A stretch of 32,621 bases of DNA. Origin: Promethearchaeota archaeon. GTDB lineage: Archaea > Asgardarchaeota > Lokiarchaeia > Sigyniarchaeales > SOKP01. The notes below the pieces were generated by a model. That model searched no databases, was not told the origin of the DNA, and saw only the letters and a list, made by a program, of their open reading frames with translations. Below, in pieces: positions 1-13,666 of this stretch. The translations under genes were made by a program, and so were the position numbers. The DNA is taken from positions 1-32,621 of the forward strand of contig JAEOTP010000044.1 of assembly GCA_016839765.1 (NCBI GenBank), given 5' to 3'. Within the stretch, counting starts at the first letter, position 1, and every line of letters starts with the position of its first letter.

Positions 1-300
1 ATATTCAATGAAATTAAGTTTTTTCATCTAACAACTAATTTGAGAAATATTATCTAATACATATTTACTCTTATTTAACACCGTTTAATTATGATCAAAA
101 TCTTGGAATGAAACCAAATTTTTATTTAAAATGCAAAAATTAATGGAATTAACTCAAGAACTCTCATCCACACTATATTAGAATATCATTTATCATTATT
201 TAAATATGAATAGTGTCTATTATTAATTAAAGAAAAACTTTACCAAAAATAAATAAGGAAATTAATCAAAATATAAAACCAGTAAAGGAGGTATAGAATT

Positions 301-756
301 ATGAGTAAACAAGAAAAAAAGGCAAAAAAAGTACAATTAACGCTTGATAATATGAAAGCAGGTATGACTATGAAAGATTTACACGGTAAGGACGTACAAA
401 TAGACGATGACTTAATAGAGCAGATGAGAAGATATGAGCAAGAATCAAATAAAAATGCTATTTGGAAAAACAAGATTACAGGACATTTCATTCATTACAA
501 GTGGATTGAAGAACATCCAGAGTATTTAGTAGAAAAAGAGAAATCCAAAGCTGAAAGAATGGAGAAAAGGAGAAAAGCAAGAGAAAGCAAGAAAGAAAAT
601 AAAGTAGAAACCGAAATTGAAAAAGAAATGATAGACGAAGAAAATTTAATGCTTGATTGTATAGCCGATTATCAGAAAGAATTTGGAGTTAAAAAAGTAA
701 ACACCAATACGAAGAAATTCAAAGCCTTTTTCGAAGAATGGAAAAATTCTAATTAA
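301..756 (+). CDS. Hypothetical Lys/Glu-rich protein with two copies of a short Y-x-x-E...T-x-x-F motif
   Basis: 151-aa ORF; GGAGGT Shine-Dalgarno-like motif just upstream of the ATG; T-rich tract after the stop. Confidence 0.8.
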   Translation: MSKQEKKAKKVQLTLDNMKAGMTMKDLHGKDVQIDDDLIEQMRRYEQESNKNAIWKNKITGHFIHYKWIEEHPEYLVEKEKSKAERMEKRRKARESKKENKVETEIEKEMIDEENLMLDCIADYQKEFGVKKVNTNTKKFKAFFEEWKNSN

Positions 757-802
757 TTTTTTTTCTTCTGTAAAAATTATTTAAAAATTACTTTTAATTG
801 TG

Positions 803-825
803 AGCGTTGTTTTTTAAACAACGCT
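803..825. promoter_or_regulatory. Perfect 10-bp inverted repeat AGCGTTGTTT-ttt-AAACAACGCT (operator or hairpin)
   Basis: Arms at 803-812 and 816-825 are exact reverse complements; about 50 nt upstream of ORF 874; function inferred. Confidence 0.55.
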
Positions 826-873
826 AAATATTATTTATTTAAAGACAATAATAATATCTTCAATGAAAAAATT

Positions 874-2601
874 ATGAAAAATCCTGAGAATATTGATAAT
901 ATGTTATATCAATATAATGTAGGAGTAAGAGAAATTATACAAAGTGTAAGAGTTTCTGATGAAATAGCTTTAGGTATTTATAATAGAACTGAGCGTTACC
1001 TTCAGTCATCAAATGAGGAAAAAATTTATGACGATCGTGCAAATCTGTTAGAATATATTAATAATTGGTTAACTGATGGTGTTTTAGTCAGAAAAGAATT
1101 AAAAAAATTTTTTGATTCAATTGTTAAATATTTTAGAACTAAATCTGCTGAAGTGAGTAGAAACATTATTGCTTTTTTCTCAAAAGAAAAAGAATTGTTT
1201 CTAATTCACACAAGAGAAGATGTAAGAATAATTAATGTAACCTTCGATGAGATTGTAACAGTTGGTTTAAGTAAAGAAAATATTCTAAGAGCTTTTAAAT
1301 TTTATTTTTCAGATGAATTAAATGAAATAGCGCTCAGATATAGAGAAAAACATAGAGCAAAAGTACTTTTGCGACTTTTTAACATCGAGAGCATTACATT
1401 TGATTATTCATCTATAATAAGGATAAGTTGTACAAATTCTAATCGAAATATGACTTATCAAATAAGTTTATCACCCATGAGATTTATGGAATATTATAAG
1501 GATGGTGTTATTGAAATTAATCCTACTAACCAAACTATTATACCACCACAGGAATTGATGGATATTGTATCATTAAAGGTCAAAAATAAGACTTTTAGTA
1601 AAAAAAATATTAGCGATTTTTTAACAGCAATTAAAAAAGAGTTTGATAATCCTATTATTGAGAAGATTGAAGAATATCTCACAGAGTATAAAGCAAAAAG
1701 GATTGAGTTAAAAATTGATTTAGAAAAATATGGTTTAGAGAGGTTTATTACTGAAGAATCTCAAGATTATAAAATTATAGAGCATTCAGAGAGAATTGAA
1801 TTTATAGTAAATGAAAAACATGAATTTATAGCTAAACCAAGAGTAGATTGGGGTACTCTAATTATGTTAGATGAAGATATTAATTTATCAAATAAATTTT
1901 TAGAGTCTTTGGAATATGAGATTTTAAAAGGATCAAGTATAAGGAGAATCAATTTTGTGCAATTAATGTATATGCCAGAACCCCTAAAAATTGGAAATTT
2001 TTTAATATTTAATTTATCTGATTTAAAATATTCAACAAATTTGATACAAATATTACAAAATGAATTTGAAACAAAATATGATCCTTCTTATAAAGTAATT
2101 ACTTTATTAATTCAGCTTAGTCTCTTAAAAACATCCGATATTTTCCAATATGAGTATTTAGCTGATAATTTAATTAAAAAAATAATTAGTAAAGAAAGAA
2201 TTATATTAAATCGTGGTATTGAAGAGGACTTTATTTTAGAATTCAAAGGTGGGGAATTTTTTAATACTCATAGTAGACAAGATGAAATAGCACACTATAT
2301 TACTGAAAAAATCCAACCAAAATTAACTAATTCTAATATTGTGGCAATTATATTTGGTTATGATGAAGTTTCTGATACAATTCAACCAATTAGTTATAAT
2401 AATTATAAAAACGAAGAAAGAGATGAATTACAACAAAAAATAAAAGAAATTCTAAGAGAGGAATATACTTTCAATGTGGAACATTTAATTATCAACATAT
2501 ATCTACTTAATCAAAATGAAGAAGAAGGTTTACTTTTGGTAGTTTCTGGTAATTCTGCTATAGATAATGGAGTGTATTTAGAGTCATTATTTACTCAATA
2601 G
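874..2601 (+). CDS. Uncharacterised N-terminal region fused to C-terminal Schlafen/AlbA_2-like domain
   Basis: 575-aa ORF; E-x4-EFK motif (IEEDFILEFKG, aa ~449-459) followed by a helix and VAIIFGYDE, matching the Schlafen AlbA_2 pattern. Confidence 0.6.
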   Translation: MKNPENIDNMLYQYNVGVREIIQSVRVSDEIALGIYNRTERYLQSSNEEKIYDDRANLLEYINNWLTDGVLVRKELKKFFDSIVKYFRTKSAEVSRNIIAFFSKEKELFLIHTREDVRIINVTFDEIVTVGLSKENILRAFKFYFSDELNEIALRYREKHRAKVLLRLFNIESITFDYSSIIRISCTNSNRNMTYQISLSPMRFMEYYKDGVIEINPTNQTIIPPQELMDIVSLKVKNKTFSKKNISDFLTAIKKEFDNPIIEKIEEYLTEYKAKRIELKIDLEKYGLERFITEESQDYKIIEHSERIEFIVNEKHEFIAKPRVDWGTLIMLDEDINLSNKFLESLEYEILKGSSIRRINFVQLMYMPEPLKIGNFLIFNLSDLKYSTNLIQILQNEFETKYDPSYKVITLLIQLSLLKTSDIFQYEYLADNLIKKIISKERIILNRGIEEDFILEFKGGEFFNTHSRQDEIAHYITEKIQPKLTNSNIVAIIFGYDEVSDTIQPISYNNYKNEERDELQQKIKEILREEYTFNVEHLIINIYLLNQNEEEGLLLVVSGNSAIDNGVYLESLFTQ

Positions 2602-3041
2602 ATTTAATTCCTCTTTCTTATTACTGGCTCTATTAGAATACCTTATTTATTTTGGAGGAAAAATGATACTGTGTTTATTTGCTATCTTTTTTGTATCCAG
2701 AATTAAAGATTGATAATTATAAATAAAAATATTATCTATCATTAAAATTGCGATCAAGTTTAATTCTATAATTTTTGAGAAGTAAATTATGAAATCTAAT
2801 TGGAAATTATTTATTTTTGCCGAAACGGAATTTTTTGAATCATCAAATTTTAAAAAATAAAATCATTTTATCTCAAAGAAAAAGTATGATTTGATTTTTA
2901 TTAACATTCAAAAACTTGAGTAATTTTTAACTTCAAAAAAATATTATATTATTTCAATTATAAAATTTGGATTATTATATTAATTTGGTGGCACAAAACA
3001 ATAATTATTTCTGGTACGTCATCGAAACTTTTAATAAATTA

Positions 3042-3830
3042 ATGAAAGCTGCAATTAAGGGTCCTGATTGTACTAATCCTAATAATTGTAATGGTGCTTG
3101 TTGTTCTATAAAAATTGATGTTCCTAAAGTCTTAGCAGAGGAATATATTAAAAGAAATTATGCGACTAAGGATGATTTTATTAGAAGTAATGTTTTCTCG
3201 TTTGAGTTAAGATTTGATAATAAAACTGGAAAATGTTTTTTATTCGATAAAGAATTAAATGGATGTAAGGTTCATAAGTCTGGAATAAAGCCACCTCAGT
3301 GTTGGATTTATCCTACTAAATTTTCAAATCCAAGAAAGGAGTTAATTAGTTGCAAGGAACTATCAGGTTGGGAGATCAAAACTCCTCTGGATGCTTTAAA
3401 GGCGGAAAAGTTATTAGAAAAATACAATTTCTTATGTAAAGTTGAAGCTAAAAGAGAAATAAAAGAAATAAAAAAACGATTAGGCAATAACTTTTTACTT
3501 GAAAATATTGAAATTTTGAAGCAATCAATAAAAACTACTGCACCAAGTAAGTTAGGAGGTATTATAGACAAATGGGATAGTTTTGATATTCTCCTAGCTG
3601 AAGGCTTTTCCTTACAAATGAAAAAATTTTGTCTTAAACATAATAAGGATTGCAAATATCTTCCAAGTAACTTCATAGAATGTAATTCTATATGCAATAC
3701 AATTGCAGACCAATTAATTTTATACCTACAACTTAATCTACCTAACTTTATAAAACAAGAGGGATCTGATGTCAATGGTGAATATCCGCTGTTTAAAATA
3801 TTTAAAAGTTCAAAAATCGTGAATATTTAA
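3042..3830 (+). CDS. YkgJ/CxxCxxCC family Fe-S/Zn cysteine-cluster protein
   Basis: C-x5-C-x3-CC (CTNPNNCNGACC), CFLF...CKVH...KPPQCWIYP motifs; ATG at 3042 preferred over TTG at 2967. Confidence 0.75.
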   Translation: MKAAIKGPDCTNPNNCNGACCSIKIDVPKVLAEEYIKRNYATKDDFIRSNVFSFELRFDNKTGKCFLFDKELNGCKVHKSGIKPPQCWIYPTKFSNPRKELISCKELSGWEIKTPLDALKAEKLLEKYNFLCKVEAKREIKEIKKRLGNNFLLENIEILKQSIKTTAPSKLGGIIDKWDSFDILLAEGFSLQMKKFCLKHNKDCKYLPSNFIECNSICNTIADQLILYLQLNLPNFIKQEGSDVNGEYPLFKIFKSSKIVNI

Positions 3831-4010: not shown

Positions 4011-4379
4011 ATGATAATAGGAGATATCCCTTTAGCTGAATTAGCAGAGAAAGTATTCTCTGAAAAATATAAGTATGTTAATAATCCTCAAAAGTTAAAA
4101 GGCCAATCAGGAAAATTTTGGGACTTCAATGCTGTTGTAGATAACGGAAAATATGGAAAGTATGGAATATTCATTCGTGATTGGAAAAGGGAAATCTCTA
4201 TAACCCAATTACGGCAACTTCATAAGGCTTGCATTGATATTCCTGAAATTGAGGGCGGTATTATGGTTTGTAATATCGCAACTGATTTTGCCCGAGATTA
4301 TTCTACTCAATTTGGAATTCAGCTCCTCAGCAGAGGCCACTTAGTATCAAAATTAAGAAATCGAGAATTTCAGTTTTAG
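4011..4379 (+). CDS. Stand-alone Mrr_cat-like restriction-endonuclease-fold protein, probably catalytically degenerate
   Basis: LKGQSGKFWDFNAVV ... IFIRDWKREISITQLRQL ... GGIMV ... ARDYSTQFGIQLL follows the Mrr_cat layout; expected D and (E/Q)xK residues replaced. Confidence 0.65.
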   Translation: MIIGDIPLAELAEKVFSEKYKYVNNPQKLKGQSGKFWDFNAVVDNGKYGKYGIFIRDWKREISITQLRQLHKACIDIPEIEGGIMVCNIATDFARDYSTQFGIQLLSRGHLVSKLRNREFQF

Positions 4380-5750: not shown

Positions 5751-6278
5751 TCAGACTCTATTATCCAAAGCTATTCCACAATTAAAACAATATCTTTTCA
5801 AAACATCTGGATAATGAAATTTCTTAGTATTAATATAACGTTTTAAACTTCTATTTAAATTAGTATAAATATCTGAAAACATATAATTCTCTATAGACAT
5901 CAACTTTAATTTAGCCTTTTTGTATAACTTGATTTTTTCCTTTTTTCTTTTCAAATAATTTTTTCCATGGAAGCCCCAGTACTCGATATAAATGTTATAA
6001 TCTGGCAGATACCAGTCACATTTGACTTGGTTTTTCAGGATCTTTATTTTCTTTTCATAGATATGGTTAAAACCAAGGATATACAAGTAATTATCAATGA
6101 TTAATTCACCCTTAGATCTTACGACATGACCATCAAGAGTTTTAAATTTTGATATTGAGTCTTCTTTTCGAGATTTCTCATTCTTTTTTATGATTTTTTT
6201 TACACTATAATAAACTAATATAAAAATTAATACGAGAATTATTCCGACAAAAATGAAATAACCCCAAATACTATTCAT
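5751..6278 (-). CDS. Membrane-anchored PD-(D/E)xK-like nuclease-fold protein with terminal CxxC
   Basis: N-terminal hydrophobic helix; DGHVVRSKGELIIDNYL...CDWYL...IYIEYWG motifs; C-terminal CFNC. Confidence 0.6.
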   Translation of the reverse strand: MNSIWGYFIFVGIILVLIFILVYYSVKKIIKKNEKSRKEDSISKFKTLDGHVVRSKGELIIDNYLYILGFNHIYEKKIKILKNQVKCDWYLPDYNIYIEYWGFHGKNYLKRKKEKIKLYKKAKLKLMSIENYMFSDIYTNLNRSLKRYINTKKFHYPDVLKRYCFNCGIALDNRV

Positions 6279-6485: not shown

Positions 6486-7514
6486 ATGTTTTATAAAGAA
6501 AAATGTACAGTCTGCGGAGAGTGTTTATCAAATTGTCCTTATTTATCATACTCAGAAGAGAAAGCGAAAATTGAATTTGAAAAATTAATAAATGGCAATG
6601 AATCTCTAGTGACCTCAGAATGTATTACATGTGCTGCTTGTAATATGTTTTGTCCTGAAGGTGCAAATCCTTTCGATTTAATTAATCAAAGGCAAGAAGA
6701 AACGGGTACTTTTAAAACCACAGATGAATGGTTAGGTATGATGAAAATGGCTTCCCGAATGCCATCCAAAGTGATAAAAGGTGATCCTAATAAACCAACT
6801 TTAAGTTTATGTACTGTTGGTGATATATTACCCGGAGTCATTACAGGTCAGTTATTTAAGGGGTTAACAATCCTAAAAGGGGGAGATTATTTCTGTTATT
6901 TTGGATGGATTCATGGAGGGAAACCCAGTGAGGTAGAAAAGAATGCTCAAAAATTTGTAGATAATCTTGCTAAAACTGGTGCAAAAGAGATAATATTATA
7001 CCATGATGATTGTTATGCAATGTTGGCAAGCAAAGTAAAAGAATTTAACATACAATTACCATTTAAACCAATTCATATTATTGAATATTTAAAAGATTAT
7101 GTTATTGAAAACGAAGATCGGGTAGAAAAATTAGATCTCAAAATTGCTTACCAGCAACCATGTGCATCAAGATATAATTTTGATAAAAATAGAGTATTAG
7201 ATGAGCTTCTTGAACTAATTGGAGTTGAAAGAGTAGATAGAAAATATGATAGAGAGAATGCACTTTGTTGTGCTGGTGTTATTGCATCAATGACTAATAA
7301 ATCAAAAGAAGAAGCGAATGAGTGGAAGATGAAAAATATATTTGATGCGAAAGAAAGTGGCGCTGATGGTTTTGTTTTTCTATGCCCAATATGTGTCCTT
7401 AACCTTAGGACCAGAGCTAAAACCCAGGGGATGGAACCATATATACTGAGTAATCTTGTAAGGTTAGCGCTAGGAGAAACATTAACTCATGGAGGAGCAG
7501 GAAAAATATATTAA
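6486..7514 (+). CDS. Fe-S oxidoreductase with ferredoxin and CCG domains (HdrD/GlpC-like)
   Basis: Two CxxCxxCxxxCP motifs; YQQPC...LCCAG...CPIC CCG motif. Confidence 0.88.
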   Translation: MFYKEKCTVCGECLSNCPYLSYSEEKAKIEFEKLINGNESLVTSECITCAACNMFCPEGANPFDLINQRQEETGTFKTTDEWLGMMKMASRMPSKVIKGDPNKPTLSLCTVGDILPGVITGQLFKGLTILKGGDYFCYFGWIHGGKPSEVEKNAQKFVDNLAKTGAKEIILYHDDCYAMLASKVKEFNIQLPFKPIHIIEYLKDYVIENEDRVEKLDLKIAYQQPCASRYNFDKNRVLDELLELIGVERVDRKYDRENALCCAGVIASMTNKSKEEANEWKMKNIFDAKESGADGFVFLCPICVLNLRTRAKTQGMEPYILSNLVRLALGETLTHGGAGKIY

Positions 7515-9613
7515 ACTTGTTCCCTTTTCACTTTTGTCTGATGATTAATTTTTTGGAAGTTGTAGATATCTGTTACAAATGAATCGAGATTTCTATCGTG
7601 AGATATGATAAACATTTGAGTTGTATTGAGTTTCTCAAATATATCTTGCATTTTATTTATTTGTTCTTGGCTAAAACCATCTGTAGGCTCATCTAAAATT
7701 AACAAATCTTTTGTTTTTACTTCCCGATATCTTTCATTGATTATTTTATCTAATGCAAGTCTATATGCCAAAGATAAAGCACTTTTTTCTCCTCCTGATA
7801 GGTCTCTAAATGGTGAGTCATATCCATTTATAATAATAATTGGTTCAAAATCATCCAATCTAATCTCTACTTCTATATTGTCCTCCTCAACTAAGATTCT
7901 AAACCACTCTTTGAAGTGGTCGTTAAATTGTCGCGCACTGGCAGAAATTATTTCTCTTTCAATGTCTCTTATAAGAATTTGAAATTCGTTGGTAATCCAA
8001 CTTCTTAGATTACTTAGATATTCAAGTTTATCTTTAAGGATCTTTCTCTTATTTAGAGCCTTATTTAGCGTTTCTATCTCAGATTTTAATAATTTTAACT
8101 TAGCTTGTTCAATACTTAATTTTTTTTCAATTTCAGATTTTTCTGATTTCACTTTTTTTATGAGTGTTTTTTGAGATACCAATCGAGAATTTAAATTATT
8201 TTCAAATTCTCTGAATTTTTTTAAATCTGTTATATTATATTTTTTTAGTATAGATTTTATTTGTTCTTGATTATTTTCAATTTTATTTTTTAATTGATTA
8301 ATTAGATCTTTTAATTTTGCTTCTCTCTTTCTTTTTTCCTCAATTATTTTTGTTAAAGATTCCTTCTTTGATTGATTAATACTAAAATCTCTTAAATTTT
8401 TTAAATATAATTCAAATTTGCTAATTCTGGAAATAAGGTCTTTAATTTCTTTTGAAAATTGTCCTATTCTTTCATTTATTTCTTTAAGTTCAGAATTAAA
8501 CCTCTCTTTTTCATGTATTTCTTGTCCACATAAGGAACACTTTCCTTCTTTAAGAAGTTTATTGAAATCATTTACTTTTTCATCTAAAATCGCTTTTCCC
8601 TTCTCTTTTTCCGATTGGATTTTTCGAAATTTTCTAATTTGAGTTTCAAGTTGTTCTTCTGTAAAATCACTCTCAAGTTTTATCTTTGGTAAAGTTTTTA
8701 TTTCTTCTTCTGATTTTAAAAATTCATTTTTCAAACTTTGTAAAGATTCGTCATTTTTTTCTTTAGAGAGAGTAGATTCATCAATAATTTGCTGATAATT
8801 ATCTATTTTTACTATTTTTTTTGAATATTCATTTAATTCTGATTGAACTGCCTCAGAATTTCGTTCCCCTATTTCAATTTCCTTTTCCTTATTTTTAACC
8901 ATTTGTTCTATTTCTTTAATTTTTTCTTTTTGCTCATCTTTTTCATTTTCTTTTTCAGGAATCAATAATTCTGGTTCTCCGACAGACTCTAGATAAATTT
9001 TCGTTTCTTTTATCCTGTTGTAAAGGTATTCATTTAAAACACCGACATTCTTAAGGGCAATCTCATATTTTTCTATACCAAAAACTTCTTTTAAGATTTC
9101 AAATCTCTCGTCTGGTCTTGCCTGAAGTATTTCTTTTACCTGTTCTTGGGGCGTATATACAGTATATCGGAATAAGGGAATTTTTTGGGCGTTTTCATAA
9201 CGAGTTATTGAGTAATTTAAAAGTTTCAATATATTTCTTCTCAAATCAGTAGGTGCATATGATATTTCTGAAATATCGTCGCCTAAATATTCAATAATTG
9301 ATCCTTCTTCCTGAGAAATAGTACTTTTTTGATTTTTAATTGTTCTCTTCAAATTCCGTTTGATTGTGTATTTCTTATTGTCAATTGAAAAAGTTAATTC
9401 TACTGATCCTCTATTTTCACCTCTTCTTAGTAACGAATCACCACTTAAATCAGCTGCAGTTAAAGTCCCAAATAATCCAAATTCTATTGCTTTTAAAACT
9501 GAAGATTTACCACTTCCGATATCTCCATAGAAAAGCATCGTTGAAGCAGGGAATGCTAATTCTAAGTGTTTTATGCTTCTGATATTCTCGAGTTTCACAG
9601 ATTCAATAATCAT
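7511..9613 (-). CDS. rad50: DNA double-strand break repair ATPase Rad50 (SbcC/SMC family)
   Basis: Walker A GDIGSGKS, Q-loop YTPQ, coiled coils, Zn-hook CSLC, signature LSGGE, Walker B LILDEPT, H-loop ISHD; start at 9613 or 9622. Confidence 0.95.
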   Translation of the reverse strand: MIIESVKLENIRSIKHLELAFPASTMLFYGDIGSGKSSVLKAIEFGLFGTLTAADLSGDSLLRRGENRGSVELTFSIDNKKYTIKRNLKRTIKNQKSTISQEEGSIIEYLGDDISEISYAPTDLRRNILKLLNYSITRYENAQKIPLFRYTVYTPQEQVKEILQARPDERFEILKEVFGIEKYEIALKNVGVLNEYLYNRIKETKIYLESVGEPELLIPEKENEKDEQKEKIKEIEQMVKNKEKEIEIGERNSEAVQSELNEYSKKIVKIDNYQQIIDESTLSKEKNDESLQSLKNEFLKSEEEIKTLPKIKLESDFTEEQLETQIRKFRKIQSEKEKGKAILDEKVNDFNKLLKEGKCSLCGQEIHEKERFNSELKEINERIGQFSKEIKDLISRISKFELYLKNLRDFSINQSKKESLTKIIEEKRKREAKLKDLINQLKNKIENNQEQIKSILKKYNITDLKKFREFENNLNSRLVSQKTLIKKVKSEKSEIEKKLSIEQAKLKLLKSEIETLNKALNKRKILKDKLEYLSNLRSWITNEFQILIRDIEREIISASARQFNDHFKEWFRILVEEDNIEVEIRLDDFEPIIIINGYDSPFRDLSGGEKSALSLAYRLALDKIINERYREVKTKDLLILDEPTDGFSQEQINKMQDIFEKLNTTQMFIISHDRNLDSFVTDIYNFQKINHQTKVKREQV

Positions 9614-9614
9614 A

Positions 9615-10910
9615 TTAATCATTTCCCTCCTTACCTAATTGAAAGATCTTTTTAAAATTGATTATTAATTCTTCGTCATAGTCTTTTACTTTAGTTCCTT
9701 CTTCTCTTTCCTTACCTAATATCGATAATAAATCATGAGTTTTATTCTCTAAATCTTTTTTATTGATATCTTTAATTTTTATTTTTTGAACATGCTCATG
9801 AATAAGCGTATTTTCTATCTCTTCATTAGTTTTCCCAATAGAAACTCGAATAGAGGTATATTCCCTAGAAGAAAGCGCTACTTTATTAATTAAAACTTCA
9901 TAAGCACCTTTTTGTTTGAGTAATTGGATAATTTCATTAGTTTTAATTTCATATGGTTTGCCAGATGATAAAGTTCCATAAATACGTAGAGTGACAATTT
10001 TGTCTTTCACATTTAGATTATCTATCTTATCTTTCAAAATATTTTTTACTTGTATTGAAGTCTTATTATCACAATTGAAGTCGATACTAATTATTTCTTT
10101 AATTTTTAAGGGAATAAATTTGACATTAAAATCAGCTTCTTGAGTATTATGATTTATATCTCCAGAAATAATGCAAAATCCACCATATTTGTATTTTTCT
10201 AGTTCTCTAAAATTAGTAGGGGTTAATGCTCCAGGATAGATAACTTTAGTTTTTTCTGAAATCCTAATAATAGTTTTTTCTTTTCTTAATTCTGTAGGAA
10301 CAGTTTTGTGAAGATGCCCTCCAGCATAATAATGAAAATTAGATGGCAATAAGGATTTAGGAGCAGATTCCATATCTTTGAATTCAATTGGTTTTAATTC
10401 ATTTAACATCGTGTGCAAGATAAATATCTTAATTCCTTTTTCTTCCTCTAGATTCTTTTTATCTAATATTTTATAATCTTCAATCTCTAGACTACGCTTT
10501 CTTGCTCTTAATCCGGTCAGTTTAATATTAGTTTTCTGATCTAAGGTAAAATTAAGTATTAAATTATCTTCTGGTTTTTCTCCCTGAGAAACATCATTAA
10601 ATAATCCTGCTGTTATTAAAGGTCTAAGCATTGACTTATTTGAAGGAGAAAAATCATGAGAGCCCATAACACCATATACGGGAATTTCATGGTCTCTTAA
10701 TTTTTTTAACTCCTTAACTGCTAAATCTATAACATCTACTTTTGGATTACTAACATCAAAAAGATCTCCACTAATTATTACAAAATCTACTTTTTCTTCG
10801 ATAATTTTGTTAATTGCGGTTTCAAAAGCAAAATACCCCAGGTTATTTAACTTTTCATTTCTCCAAGCACCTAGGTGGCAATCAGCTAAATGTGCAAATT
10901 TTACTTTCAT
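9615..10910 (-). CDS. mre11: DNA repair nuclease Mre11 (SbcD family)
   Basis: Phosphoesterase motifs ADCHLG, SGDLFD, GSHD, LH, GGHLH; adjacent to rad50. Confidence 0.95.
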   Translation of the reverse strand: MKVKFAHLADCHLGAWRNEKLNNLGYFAFETAINKIIEEKVDFVIISGDLFDVSNPKVDVIDLAVKELKKLRDHEIPVYGVMGSHDFSPSNKSMLRPLITAGLFNDVSQGEKPEDNLILNFTLDQKTNIKLTGLRARKRSLEIEDYKILDKKNLEEEKGIKIFILHTMLNELKPIEFKDMESAPKSLLPSNFHYYAGGHLHKTVPTELRKEKTIIRISEKTKVIYPGALTPTNFRELEKYKYGGFCIISGDINHNTQEADFNVKFIPLKIKEIISIDFNCDNKTSIQVKNILKDKIDNLNVKDKIVTLRIYGTLSSGKPYEIKTNEIIQLLKQKGAYEVLINKVALSSREYTSIRVSIGKTNEEIENTLIHEHVQKIKIKDINKKDLENKTHDLLSILGKEREEGTKVKDYDEELIINFKKIFQLGKEGND

Positions 10911-10959
10911 ATGTAATAACTTAAATAATATTTTGTTCTATATAAAGAAAAAAAAATAA

Positions 10960-12528
10960 TTATGAGAATCCAGGTGATATTTTCTTTATCTTTTTTTCAG
11001 GTTTTATACTAGCTTTTATCAAATCATCGAATAAAGGAATTATTATTGGTATTGCAAATTTTGTAAAATTAGAGGTAACTATTGCCTCACCGATATCTAA
11101 ACTTGCGATAGTTTGACTATCATCTGATAAATCTTGAGCAGAGCTTTCAATTAAAGTCCGTCGCTCGGGTCCCATTTCATTACCAAGTATTATTTTAGTA
11201 TTCATATTGGCAAGAATTTCTCTAGGTATTAGGCTTGGTAATTGAGTAATTCCAATTAAGCCAATCTTAAATTTCCTCCCCTCTCTAGCAATTTTGCCAA
11301 AGACATTTTCTTTAGCTTCTAATGCTTTAATACCAATAACTCGAGGAGCTTCCTCAAGTATAATTGTTATTACAGGTTTATCTTCTAATCGATCATTAAA
11401 TTTATAATTCTTATATCGATTAAAAATACTCTCAACAATAATAGTAGCAATAAAAATTTCTTCCCTCCCGGAAAATAAGGAGCTATCAATAATTACAGTT
11501 TTTCCATCAATCAAGAAATTAATAATATCTTCAATTGTAGATTCATACCCATTAAGGTAATATATACCATTTTCAATTATATTATCATTATCATCAAATC
11601 CAAAATCAAGTAATAGAGCCAATTTTCTACGTAATACCGATAAAGTAATCGGATTTATTCCATTAGGTAATAGTTCATTTTTATCAAAAATCTTTTGTAT
11701 CCATTCTTTTTTATATAATCTATAATATAAAATAAGGGCATCACTTTGAGGCTGAGAAAGGTCTATACTACCTAAAACATGGCTAGGATAAAGATATTTT
11801 GTATTAAATTTCAAATCAAGTTTTCCAGAAACATTCCTTAATGTATAATATTTTATGAATTTATTACTATTAAGATGTTCCTTAAGACCCTTGACCTTTG
11901 GAGTTCCATAATACTCATTATGAGGATCAAAAACTAATTTTCCACAAGAATCATTTTCAATAATATTATAGAGAATAACCTTAACTAAATTTGATTTACC
12001 TCTACCAGTAGTCGCAGGTATTAAGACATGATGTCGTAGAATTTCAGAAGCGCTAACATTAACATCTATATCTAATGTTTTAGAACCAGACCTAACTTTT
12101 CCTAAAGTAATTGGATCTTCAATACTCATTTCTTTAAAAAAATGTAAATGCTCTTCTCTAATTTCAAATAGATCTCCAAAGAATTGAGGGAGCTTTTTTG
12201 GTAAATATAATCCATTATCTCTAACTTTTATTAGAGGTTTTGCTAATGCTAAAATATAATTTCTCAATTCTGGCTCATATATCTTAAGATCTACACCTTC
12301 TCTCTCTAAACCATATCCCGCAATTAATTCTAAAGAGGTATCTGGAATTTGGCTACCATAATATAGATCCTTAATTTGATATATTGAATAATCATCCTTG
12401 TCCTTTCCAGCTACAAATAATTGCCCTAATTCAAATTCTTCATCAGATTTTTGTCTTAGTATAAGTCTAACAAAAGAACCAGAAACGAAACTTCCGATTT
12501 TTTTTCCTAAATTGGTCATATTAATCAT
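10960..12528 (-). CDS. herA: HerA helicase/translocase
   Basis: N-terminal HAS barrel, Walker [16 protein letters not shown], Walker B LEEAP, AREGRKF, ITQLP; start at 12528 or 12519. Confidence 0.93.
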
Positions 12529-12535
12529 ACATCTC

Positions 12536-13666
12536 TCATTTTCTTATTTTATTTAGAATATCATGAGCATCTACGGAGCGTAGACGTGGTAATATGAATT
12601 TGTTGAAAATATCCTTGTCAAATTCAATTAATAATTGTATTTTGTAAGATTCGACTTCCTTTTTTGAGATTCTTGCTAATTGGTCTACTTTTATCAAACC
12701 ATATGGATAACCTAAAAATGTAGGATCATTTGAATTATTAGTAATATTAGATATTATAATTTCTCTTTCTTGTTTACTTAAATTGTTAGATTGCTCAATA
12801 TAAATATCAAATCGAAAAGAATAAGGTGAATCCTTATTAAATTTGACAAAGAAAAGATCTGCTTGATTATCAACCCTTGTAATTTTTTTAATCGGGTAAT
12901 AATACCATGGATCTTTAGGAAATTTTGAATTACCTATTAGATTTATTTGGAAATTTAAGGAATCTCCACTTTGGTTTAATAAGCGACATGATTTTGAAAG
13001 TCCTGTGATATAAACATTTTTATTAATCCCTGCGGAATAAACTTCATTAGCTAATCTAATCTCTTTAGGGTAACCAGTTTGTAATGATCCATCTCGAATA
13101 AAAATATCTCCTTTACCCAATTCATTGAGAATAAAGTGTTTTGCATATGTCCACTCAGTAAAGCGCATTGCTATTCCACCATGATTTTCTATCGGCATCA
13201 AAAACTTACCTTGCATTCTAATTGAAGGATCTTTTAAGGGAATCAGTATATCTTCTTGAGGTAGATAATTGCTATAACTACTTTCTTTTGGAAAAAGCGA
13301 AGTTCTAAAAATTATTTCGCCATTACCATTCTTTTCAGAAATGGTTGCTGAATAAAATTCAATAATAGGTGGTAATTTTTCTGGGGCATTTAATTTTTCT
13401 GAATCCAAAATAATTCCAGCAACTCGGCAGATACTAATATTAAAATCAGAACCCTTTATTATAGGTTCAGTACCGCCATCTACAAAACCTAGTTTTCGGT
13501 AATCTTTTACTTCAGGTATTTTGAAAATCCTATCATCAGAAATGACAAAGGCCTTTTCGCCATCTTCAATAGTTAAAGCGGATTCTTCTTCCTTAAAATC
13601 TTTTTTATGATTTTGTATAAATCTTATACAATTACGAAGAGCAGAGAATTTTTCAGTTGTTTTCAT
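12536..13666 (-). CDS. nurA: NurA 5'-3' nuclease
   Basis: [31 protein letters not shown] motifs; operon with herA-mre11-rad50. Confidence 0.9.

Follow-up and report, generated by a model that had tools for sequence, protein, structure and literature searches.

What does a 575-amino-acid (aa) protein of an Asgard archaeon do when sequence libraries offer no name for it, and could it act in defence against viruses? Schlafen-type RNA-cutting domains are used in human and bacterial antiviral immunity. The gene studied here lies at positions 874-2601 of the 32,621-nucleotide (nt) contig JAEOTP010000044.1 of a Promethearchaeota archaeon (GCA_016839765.1); this whole stretch is called the window. 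A first-pass annotation of the letters alone had read the gene as a sensor of unrecognised sequence joined to a C-terminal Schlafen/AlbA_2-like nuclease. Our sequence comparisons and a structural model suggest that the product is, on balance, probably a defence protein of the prokaryotic Schlafen (pSlfn) type in which one polypeptide unites sensor and effector. The gene and the parts of its product are:

874..2601, + strand: 575-aa gene, an intact open reading frame (ORF) with an ATG start, encoding a YejK-N-domain-like module, a middle region and a C-terminal Schlafen/AlbA_2-like domain
895..1389, + strand (residues 8-172): module that folds like the YejK N-domain; its long beta-hairpin spans residues 137-158
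1408..2082, + strand (residues 179-403): middle region, two alpha/beta regions, with K321, P370, G374 and N380 conserved in the family
2095..2565, + strand (residues 408-564): Schlafen C-lobe/AlbA_2-like domain with a putative acidic triad of E451, E456 (+K458) and D497/E498

The domains of the 575-aa protein

The ORF is genuine, as the first-pass annotation had assumed. Full-length homologues align over the entire 575 aa, and two of them (P0003 and P0005) do so end to end with 52-54% identity and 98% coverage. We built an AlphaFold model of the protein on the family alignment (mean predicted local distance difference test score 82.1). A Foldseek search with this model placed SLFN13, SAMD9, SLFN11 and SLFN14 first among the PDB matches (probability 1.0, E ~6e-3). 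Next, residues 408-564 were superposed onto the catalytic C-lobes of Schlafens using VIA-align, with the following scores:

SLFN5, residues 174-304: 9.5
SLFN14, residues 188-318: 9.4
SLFN13, residues 188-319: 9.3 (root-mean-square deviation 3.0, 116 aligned)
SLFN11, residues 191-323: 9.1
SLFN12, residues 182-313: 8.5
rSAMD9 tRNase, residues 167-381: 8.5
AlbA_2 protein DIP2311, residues 9-172: 7.6
Best unrelated fold: 5.7

A Foldseek-independent search of 48,161 PDB representatives gave this ranking again. The modelled domain matches the Schlafen-lobe fold, a four-stranded sheet with helices around it, while sequence identity to eukaryotic Schlafens and SAMD9 in the alignments is 7-16%. The relationship was also examined at the level of profiles. 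When the C-terminal domain of the family was compared by hhalign with 23 canonical AlbA_2 domains, drawn from Asgard genomes using PF04326, P values of 4e-5 to 7e-5 and probabilities of 63-70% were obtained; the remaining three regions of the protein gave P>=0.086. The alignment places E451/E456-F-K on the E..lEFK of AlbA_2 and GYDE...I.PI on its GI.d..I.Gi.

The protein contains both an Ex4(E/D)xK motif (E451-x4-E456-F457-K458) and a downstream acidic residue (D497/E498 of G495-Y496-D497-E498, within the IIFGYDE of residues 492-498). Ex4(E/D)xK is the catalytic signature of pSlfns and SLFN11 (PMC13056530), and the catalytic triad of SLFN13, E205/E210/D248, is confined to its C-lobe (PMC5862951). 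Of 20 family members, with pairwise identities down to 17%, 17-19 retain E451, E456, K458 and E498. Because the fold ranking, the motif register and the motif conservation agree, we treat the C-terminal domain, on sequence and model, as a divergent Schlafen/AlbA_2 lobe, and we infer that it is a nuclease. This bears out the earlier assignment of the domain and the positions given for its motifs. The HMM check proposed at the time came out negative: PF04326 does not match the 575-aa protein or 17 aligned family members even at E<=1. The same Pfam library does detect canonical AlbA_2 domains in genes adjoining the relatives.

The first-pass annotation had found nothing recognisable in the N-terminal three quarters. 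This description holds for sequence searches and fails for the fold, since residues 8-172 give a clear match to the N-domain of E. coli YejK. The order of elements (beta-beta-alpha-beta-alpha-alpha-beta-beta, a long hairpin and a helix) is that of the published YejK N-domain, whose six-stranded sheet, four helices and extended beta6-beta7 hairpin are all matched. In YejK the corresponding hairpin mediates dimerisation of a DNA clamp (PMC11229321). The likeness recognised is to the N-domain; no structural alignment passes YejK residue 190 or reaches the YejK C-domain. Pfam PF04245 (NA37) matched neither the protein nor 17 family members, NA37 was not found above the cut-off in 201 Asgard genomes, and the family profile found no match at E<=10 among all PDB sequences. 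Residues 1-440 had no usable match in the ESM Atlas. PCNA, Rtt106 and KwaB appeared for the N-terminal model in Foldseek in low-probability rows only and were treated as noise. The middle region, residues 179-403, had no convincing match, though it was searched only as part of larger models.

Within the YejK-like module the family conserves T89, E93, R/K96, H112, T/S113, F143 and E158. The polar residues among these (all but F143; nt about 1138-1347) form a cluster in this domain. Judged from conservation, the cluster goes beyond what a plain DNA clamp accounts for; it might serve as a ligand or catalytic site.

Distribution and gene context of the family

Just 16 proteins at E<=1e-3 came out of an exhaustive search of 1.84 billion representatives with phmmer, and a profile of the N-terminal 440 residues yielded 36, mostly of one subfamily of 546-563 aa. 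Conservation spans the entire length of the proteins. The named members are all labelled hypothetical (LCGC14_0908650 from marine sediment, and proteins of Halosimplex rubrum, such as WP_179909682.1, and of Methanobrevibacter sp. V74), and the relatives from genomes belong to the Promethearchaeota (Asgard). Of 400 genomes from the phylum, 10 have members according to the family profile, as do four of 42 in the genus, where two of the four copies are degraded (G271, and G249, in which the copy lies beside an integrase and a ParB_N gene). Pfam and NCBIfam have no match for the 575-aa protein, and Pfam gave nothing relevant for 17 family members. No relative was found on viral contigs. BFVD gave only weak fold matches, a vaccinia Schlafen-like protein (probability 0.63) among them. 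A search for longer homologues with other fusions found none, which is weak evidence.

To see where the relatives reside, we recovered 12 metagenomic loci for the largest subfamily. Genes of type I restriction-modification (R-M), hsdM and/or hsdS, directly adjoin the homologue in 11 of them, and hsdS lies immediately 3' of it in 10. In 10 of the 12 loci, as in genomes G006 and G064, the homologue sits between hsdM and hsdS with translational coupling. Where contigs are long enough the operon order is hsdR-hsdM-X-hsdS, X being the homologue, with overlapping stop and start codons. Genome G006 has the same arrangement, with the homologue between hsdM and hsdS; in G064, which carries a different subfamily, the homologue overlaps the hsdS start, and in G214 its neighbours are an N6-methylase and two canonical AlbA_2 proteins. 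Three metagenomic loci contain, past hsdS, genes for a 250-aa protein, a short prokaryotic Argonaute (pAgo; Piwi, E 7.8e-49) and a 342-aa protein. This conserved trio (L056, L057 and L061; for example L057:8512-11592) is presumably a short-pAgo system; the partners of the pAgo have no match in Pfam or PADLOC. Among the neighbours of relatives PADLOC reported only a marginal DpdK match.

One homologue carries a different effector. In the 738-aa protein of the closed genome G143 the profile still matches the N-terminal module at positions 9-448 (E 1e-62), and from residue 489 PRTase-CE (E 1.5e-46) takes the place of the Schlafen lobe. Type III-A retrons have PRTase-CE as their accessory effector domain (PMC13712802). 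A constant N-terminal module with an exchanged effector is the signature of sensor-effector defence proteins. Just 5' of this variant is a gene for an 849-aa protein (L015:6280-8829) with weak matches to AAA_16 and Mrr_cat_2, possibly an NTPase-nuclease defence gene by these matches.

The window copy and that of G241 have no R-M neighbour, and the genome of the window has no hsdS. It follows that the protein has to be capable of acting by itself. The window copy lies on a recent, strain-specific insert:

1..2964: window part of the insert, with a 151-aa gene, the 575-aa gene and an AT-rich spacer
2965..2979, - strand: 15-bp direct repeat TATAATAATCCAAAT, one of two copies bounding the insert

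In a genus-wide DNA search the closest relatives align with the window from 2965 onward only (G239 at 94% and G265 at 92%), and relatives whose flanks are 92-97% identical lack the insert. At the empty sites (G239, G265, G259 and G256) a CxxCxxCC gene abuts a conserved gene for a protein of 704-719 aa, whose orthologue, 94% identical, opens contig C9 in the genome of the window. The second copy of TATAATAATCCAAAT is located there, at C9 97-111; at the empty site in G239 the repeat is single-copy. The insert thus consists of window 1-2964, an unassembled gap and C9 1-96, and measures at least about 3 kb. Its GC content is 24.2%, compared with 29.4% in the rest of the window. The contig ends facing into the insert (C9 1-96 and window 1-300) do not overlap, and the unassembled interior could hold an integrase or a repeat.

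The gene is accessory. The fact that it sits on a repeat-bounded insert absent from close relatives excludes a housekeeping role, which the first-pass annotation had listed as grounds for giving up its proposal. The defence-linked neighbourhood it had proposed to look for is found around the relatives, in type I R-M operons and next to short pAgo, and is weak at the window itself.

Proposed function and competing explanations

We propose that the C-terminal domain, from about residue 441 to 565, is a single-lobe, metal-dependent Schlafen/AlbA_2 endonuclease with E451/E456/K458 and D497/E498 as its catalytic residues; these would correspond to the tRNA- and rRNA-cleaving residues of SLFN11, SLFN13 and bacterial pSlfns. 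The N-terminal 440 residues would be the regulatory or sensing part and would keep the nuclease off until an infection cue arrives; within them, the YejK-like module probably serves to bind nucleic acid or, by way of its long hairpin, to dimerise. A candidate cue is altered or degraded DNA, sensed by the YejK-like module as in the PANGU systems discussed below; for relatives embedded in R-M operons it may be interference with the restriction complex, similar to the guarding by PrrC. RNA, probably tRNA, would then be cleaved on infection and translation would stop. Catalysis, RNA substrate, trigger and antiviral outcome are all inferred here. The sensor-plus-nuclease reading of the first-pass annotation gains support from the fold, the motif, the patchy distribution, the R-M and pAgo context and the effector exchange.

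Several observations weigh against this proposal. Neither domain is recognised by any sequence model, as PF04326 and PF04245 are silent at E<=1, and no PADLOC model matches the protein. The Foldseek E-values for the Schlafen matches are all above 1e-3, and the profile-profile probability with canonical AlbA_2 is just 63-70%. The likeness to YejK is one of fold and concerns the N-domain only; hhalign against the E. coli YejK sequence gives a probability of 0.04%. The E..EFK signature is also retained in AlbA_2 domains of proteins annotated as regulators, hence its conservation is no proof of catalysis. The neighbourhood in the window is weakly defence-like, with a PDC-S69-like PD-(D/E)XK protein and a weak Mrr_cat match, and the genome, which is 96% complete, lacks hsdS.

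An alternative is that the protein binds nucleic acids without cutting them, with DNA or RNA bound by the YejK-like and the AlbA_2-like domain alike. It would then be a regulator associated with the nucleoid or with a mobile element, or else a subunit that assists or modulates type I R-M complexes. YejK is a non-specific DNA clamp, the AlbA_2 domain of SAMD9 was first solved as a DNA-binding domain (7ksp), SLFN5 has been described as a DNA/RNA-binding protein, and Alba, SpoVS and IF3-like folds appear lower among the structural matches. Furthermore, the translational coupling between hsdM and hsdS also suits a stoichiometric R-M subunit. We nevertheless consider a purely binding role unlikely: three acidic residues and a lysine persist at about 17% pairwise identity in a pattern that is catalytic in Schlafens and pSlfns, the G143 homologue replaces the Schlafen lobe with an enzymatic defence effector domain and not with a binding domain, and the copies in the window and in G241 have no adjacent R-M genes, the former in a genome without hsdS. 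A nuclease effector with another target, either DNA or an RNA class other than tRNA, for example DNA held by the clamp-like N-domain and degraded the way the single-gene DNase defence Shedu does, would fit the resemblance of this domain to a dsDNA clamp and the weak appearance of DNase I (2dnj) and RNase E among the structural matches, and the substrate is not readable from sequence. However, the characterised Schlafen-lobe nucleases with this motif (SLFN11/13/14, SAMD9, RorSlfn5 and Cash) all cleave tRNA or rRNA, which makes such a target quite improbable.

It is also conceivable that the gene is selfish cargo that maintains its element by addiction or exclusion without an antiviral role, or a decaying remnant without function. 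The strain-specific insert with its direct repeats would suit this explanation, as would the degraded copies of G271 and of G249, the latter adjacent to an integrase and ParB_N. On the other hand, the ORF in the window is intact and full length, the conservation among Asgard, Methanobrevibacter and Halosimplex members implies purifying selection, and the recurrent siting in R-M operons beside pAgo points to defence. Together, these observations leave selfish or functionless cargo very unlikely.

Among known systems the sensor-effector protein that we favour comes closest to the pSlfns, such as RorSlfn5 (Nat Microbiol 2026, PMC13056530); for these single-gene defences 55 architectures have been named, and many partners are unknown. 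Cash is a CRISPR-associated pSlfn nuclease (PMC13462974). The 575-aa protein and the pSlfns have a single Schlafen lobe with Ex4(E/D)xK and a variable, presumed sensor in one polypeptide, and share a patchy distribution, linkage to defence genes and a modular logic of sensor and effector. Unlike pSlfns, the 575-aa protein escapes PF04326 and every profile library used, its Schlafen domain is C-terminal, its partner is a YejK-like domain plus about 225 residues without assignment, and its lineage is archaeal (Asgard, methanogen and haloarchaeon). YejK-like plus Schlafen is not among the named pSlfn fusions (HisKinase, HTH, DUF5929, Ig-like, DUF262 and TBP-like), although PMC13056530 also contains 558 "unknown-domain" clusters. 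Among the papers searched, none mentions "YejK" together with "Schlafen". In contrast to SLFN5/11/12/13/14 and SAMD9, no N-lobe or bridging domain was detected, so there would be no pseudo-dimeric pincer within one chain; nor are there the helicase or linker domains of eukaryotic Schlafens. A second, internal Schlafen lobe was not detectable by sequence when the N, M1 and M2 regions were compared by hhalign with each other and with AlbA_2.

Residues 8-172 reproduce the N-domain fold, the order of elements and the long dimerisation hairpin of YejK/NdpA (NA37), but the match covers the N-domain only and there is no sequence similarity. In PANGU systems YejK-like proteins are infection sensors that switch on toxins, and the nucleoid-associated protein (NAP) leaves the nucleoid upon genome degradation (bioRxiv 10.64898/2026.04.06.716658). 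In PANGU the sensor is a bacterial protein in its own right and acts in trans on the toxins of its operon (GRel, lysozymes and others); here sensor and effector share one chain, and instead of a NAP gene and a toxin gene we find one polypeptide and no conserved partner gene. The anticodon nucleases PrrC and RloC are associated with type I R-M loci (PMC1484252, PMC3458546). Like prrC, relatives of the 575-aa gene occur inside type I R-M operons, and by analogy the logic of a latent RNase guarded by a restriction enzyme could plausibly be shared. PrrC combines an ABC-ATPase with its own nuclease domain; the 575-aa protein has unrelated domains and no ATPase domain according to Pfam, NCBIfam and PADLOC, and the R-M linkage is a property of the relatives only, the window copy having no R-M partner.

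A more far-reaching idea, which we put forward tentatively and with some doubt, is that the YejK-like and middle regions form a portable sensor of infection in archaea, joined in cis to exchangeable effectors (mostly Schlafen, PRTase-CE in G143). It would read the condition of DNA, whether cellular or invading, or monitor whether the type I restriction complex is intact. If so, PANGU sensing and pSlfn killing, described separately in bacteria in 2026, would be merged in one Asgard protein, and the T89/E93/H112/E158 cluster would be a ligand or catalytic site that is absent from YejK.

New in this work are a copy that stands alone, on a delimited insert of an Asgard genome lacking hsdS, the breadth of the family, the hsdR-hsdM-X-hsdS-pAgo islands and the PRTase-CE exchange on a shared N-terminal module. 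Schlafen nucleases were shown to be bacterial antiviral effectors only in 2026, and what their fused sensors detect is the key question. The family would be an archaeal, Asgard-centred Schlafen example missed by profile libraries, with a sensor that begins with a DNA-clamp fold independently implicated in infection sensing through PANGU. It also offers a natural domain swap, in which the same sensor occurs with a Schlafen or a PRTase-CE effector, and both stand-alone and R-M-embedded forms. The Asgard example, the clamp-fold sensor and the natural swap make the sensing mechanism testable. The family would furthermore extend the list of immune modules common to Asgard archaea and eukaryotes.

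Surroundings of the gene and the rest of the window

Two further features of the insert lie upstream of the 575-aa gene:

301..756, + strand: 151-aa Lys/Glu-rich gene, on the same insert as the 575-aa gene
803..825: palindrome AGCGTTGTTT-TTT-AAACAACGCT, 10 perfect base pairs with a 3-nt loop

The 151-aa gene has no family match in the Pfam, NCBIfam and PADLOC searches and is not a conserved partner, as homologues of the 575-aa gene elsewhere have other neighbours. The palindrome, like the AT-rich tract downstream, had been noted in the first reading and is indeed present. It follows the stop codon of the 151-aa gene (756) and precedes a TATA-like TTTATTTAAA, which is located about 30 nt upstream of the ATG of the 575-aa gene. 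The palindrome is the sole terminator-like match in 600-3100, where shuffled sequences predict 0.3, and it could be an operator or a terminator. It is ruled out as a feature of the family, since it occurs once in the whole genome and no counterpart was found upstream of the G241 homologue.

Downstream of the 575-aa gene, positions 2602-2966 form a non-coding spacer of 365 nt with a GC content of 18.9%, compared with 29.4% in the rest of the window. An Rfam search and a tRNA scan of the window, this spacer included, were both empty. In the spacer, 60 nt past the 575-aa gene, a hydrophobic mini-ORF of 16 codons (MILCLFAIFFVSRIKD, window 2653-2713) is opened by an ATG that lies 5 nt after a GGAGG; no counterpart was seen 3' of the G241 homologue.

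Beyond the insert, a gene at 4011-4379 (+ strand) encodes a 122-aa protein with a weak match to Mrr_cat (E 0.019), which is conserved in the genus together with the CxxCxxCC gene and an aminotransferase. The gene at 5751-6278 (- strand), in the conserved core and off the insert, encodes a 175-aa protein whose N-terminus carries a hydrophobic segment and whose C-terminus is PD-(D/E)XK-like; it matches the PADLOC candidate PDC-S69 (E 4.9e-27) and HEAT_CxxC_PD-DEXK. Positions 7511-13666 (- strand) are occupied by a complete archaeal Rad50-Mre11-HerA-NurA operon for DNA-end processing (AAA_23/SbcC, Metallophos, DUF87 and NurA).
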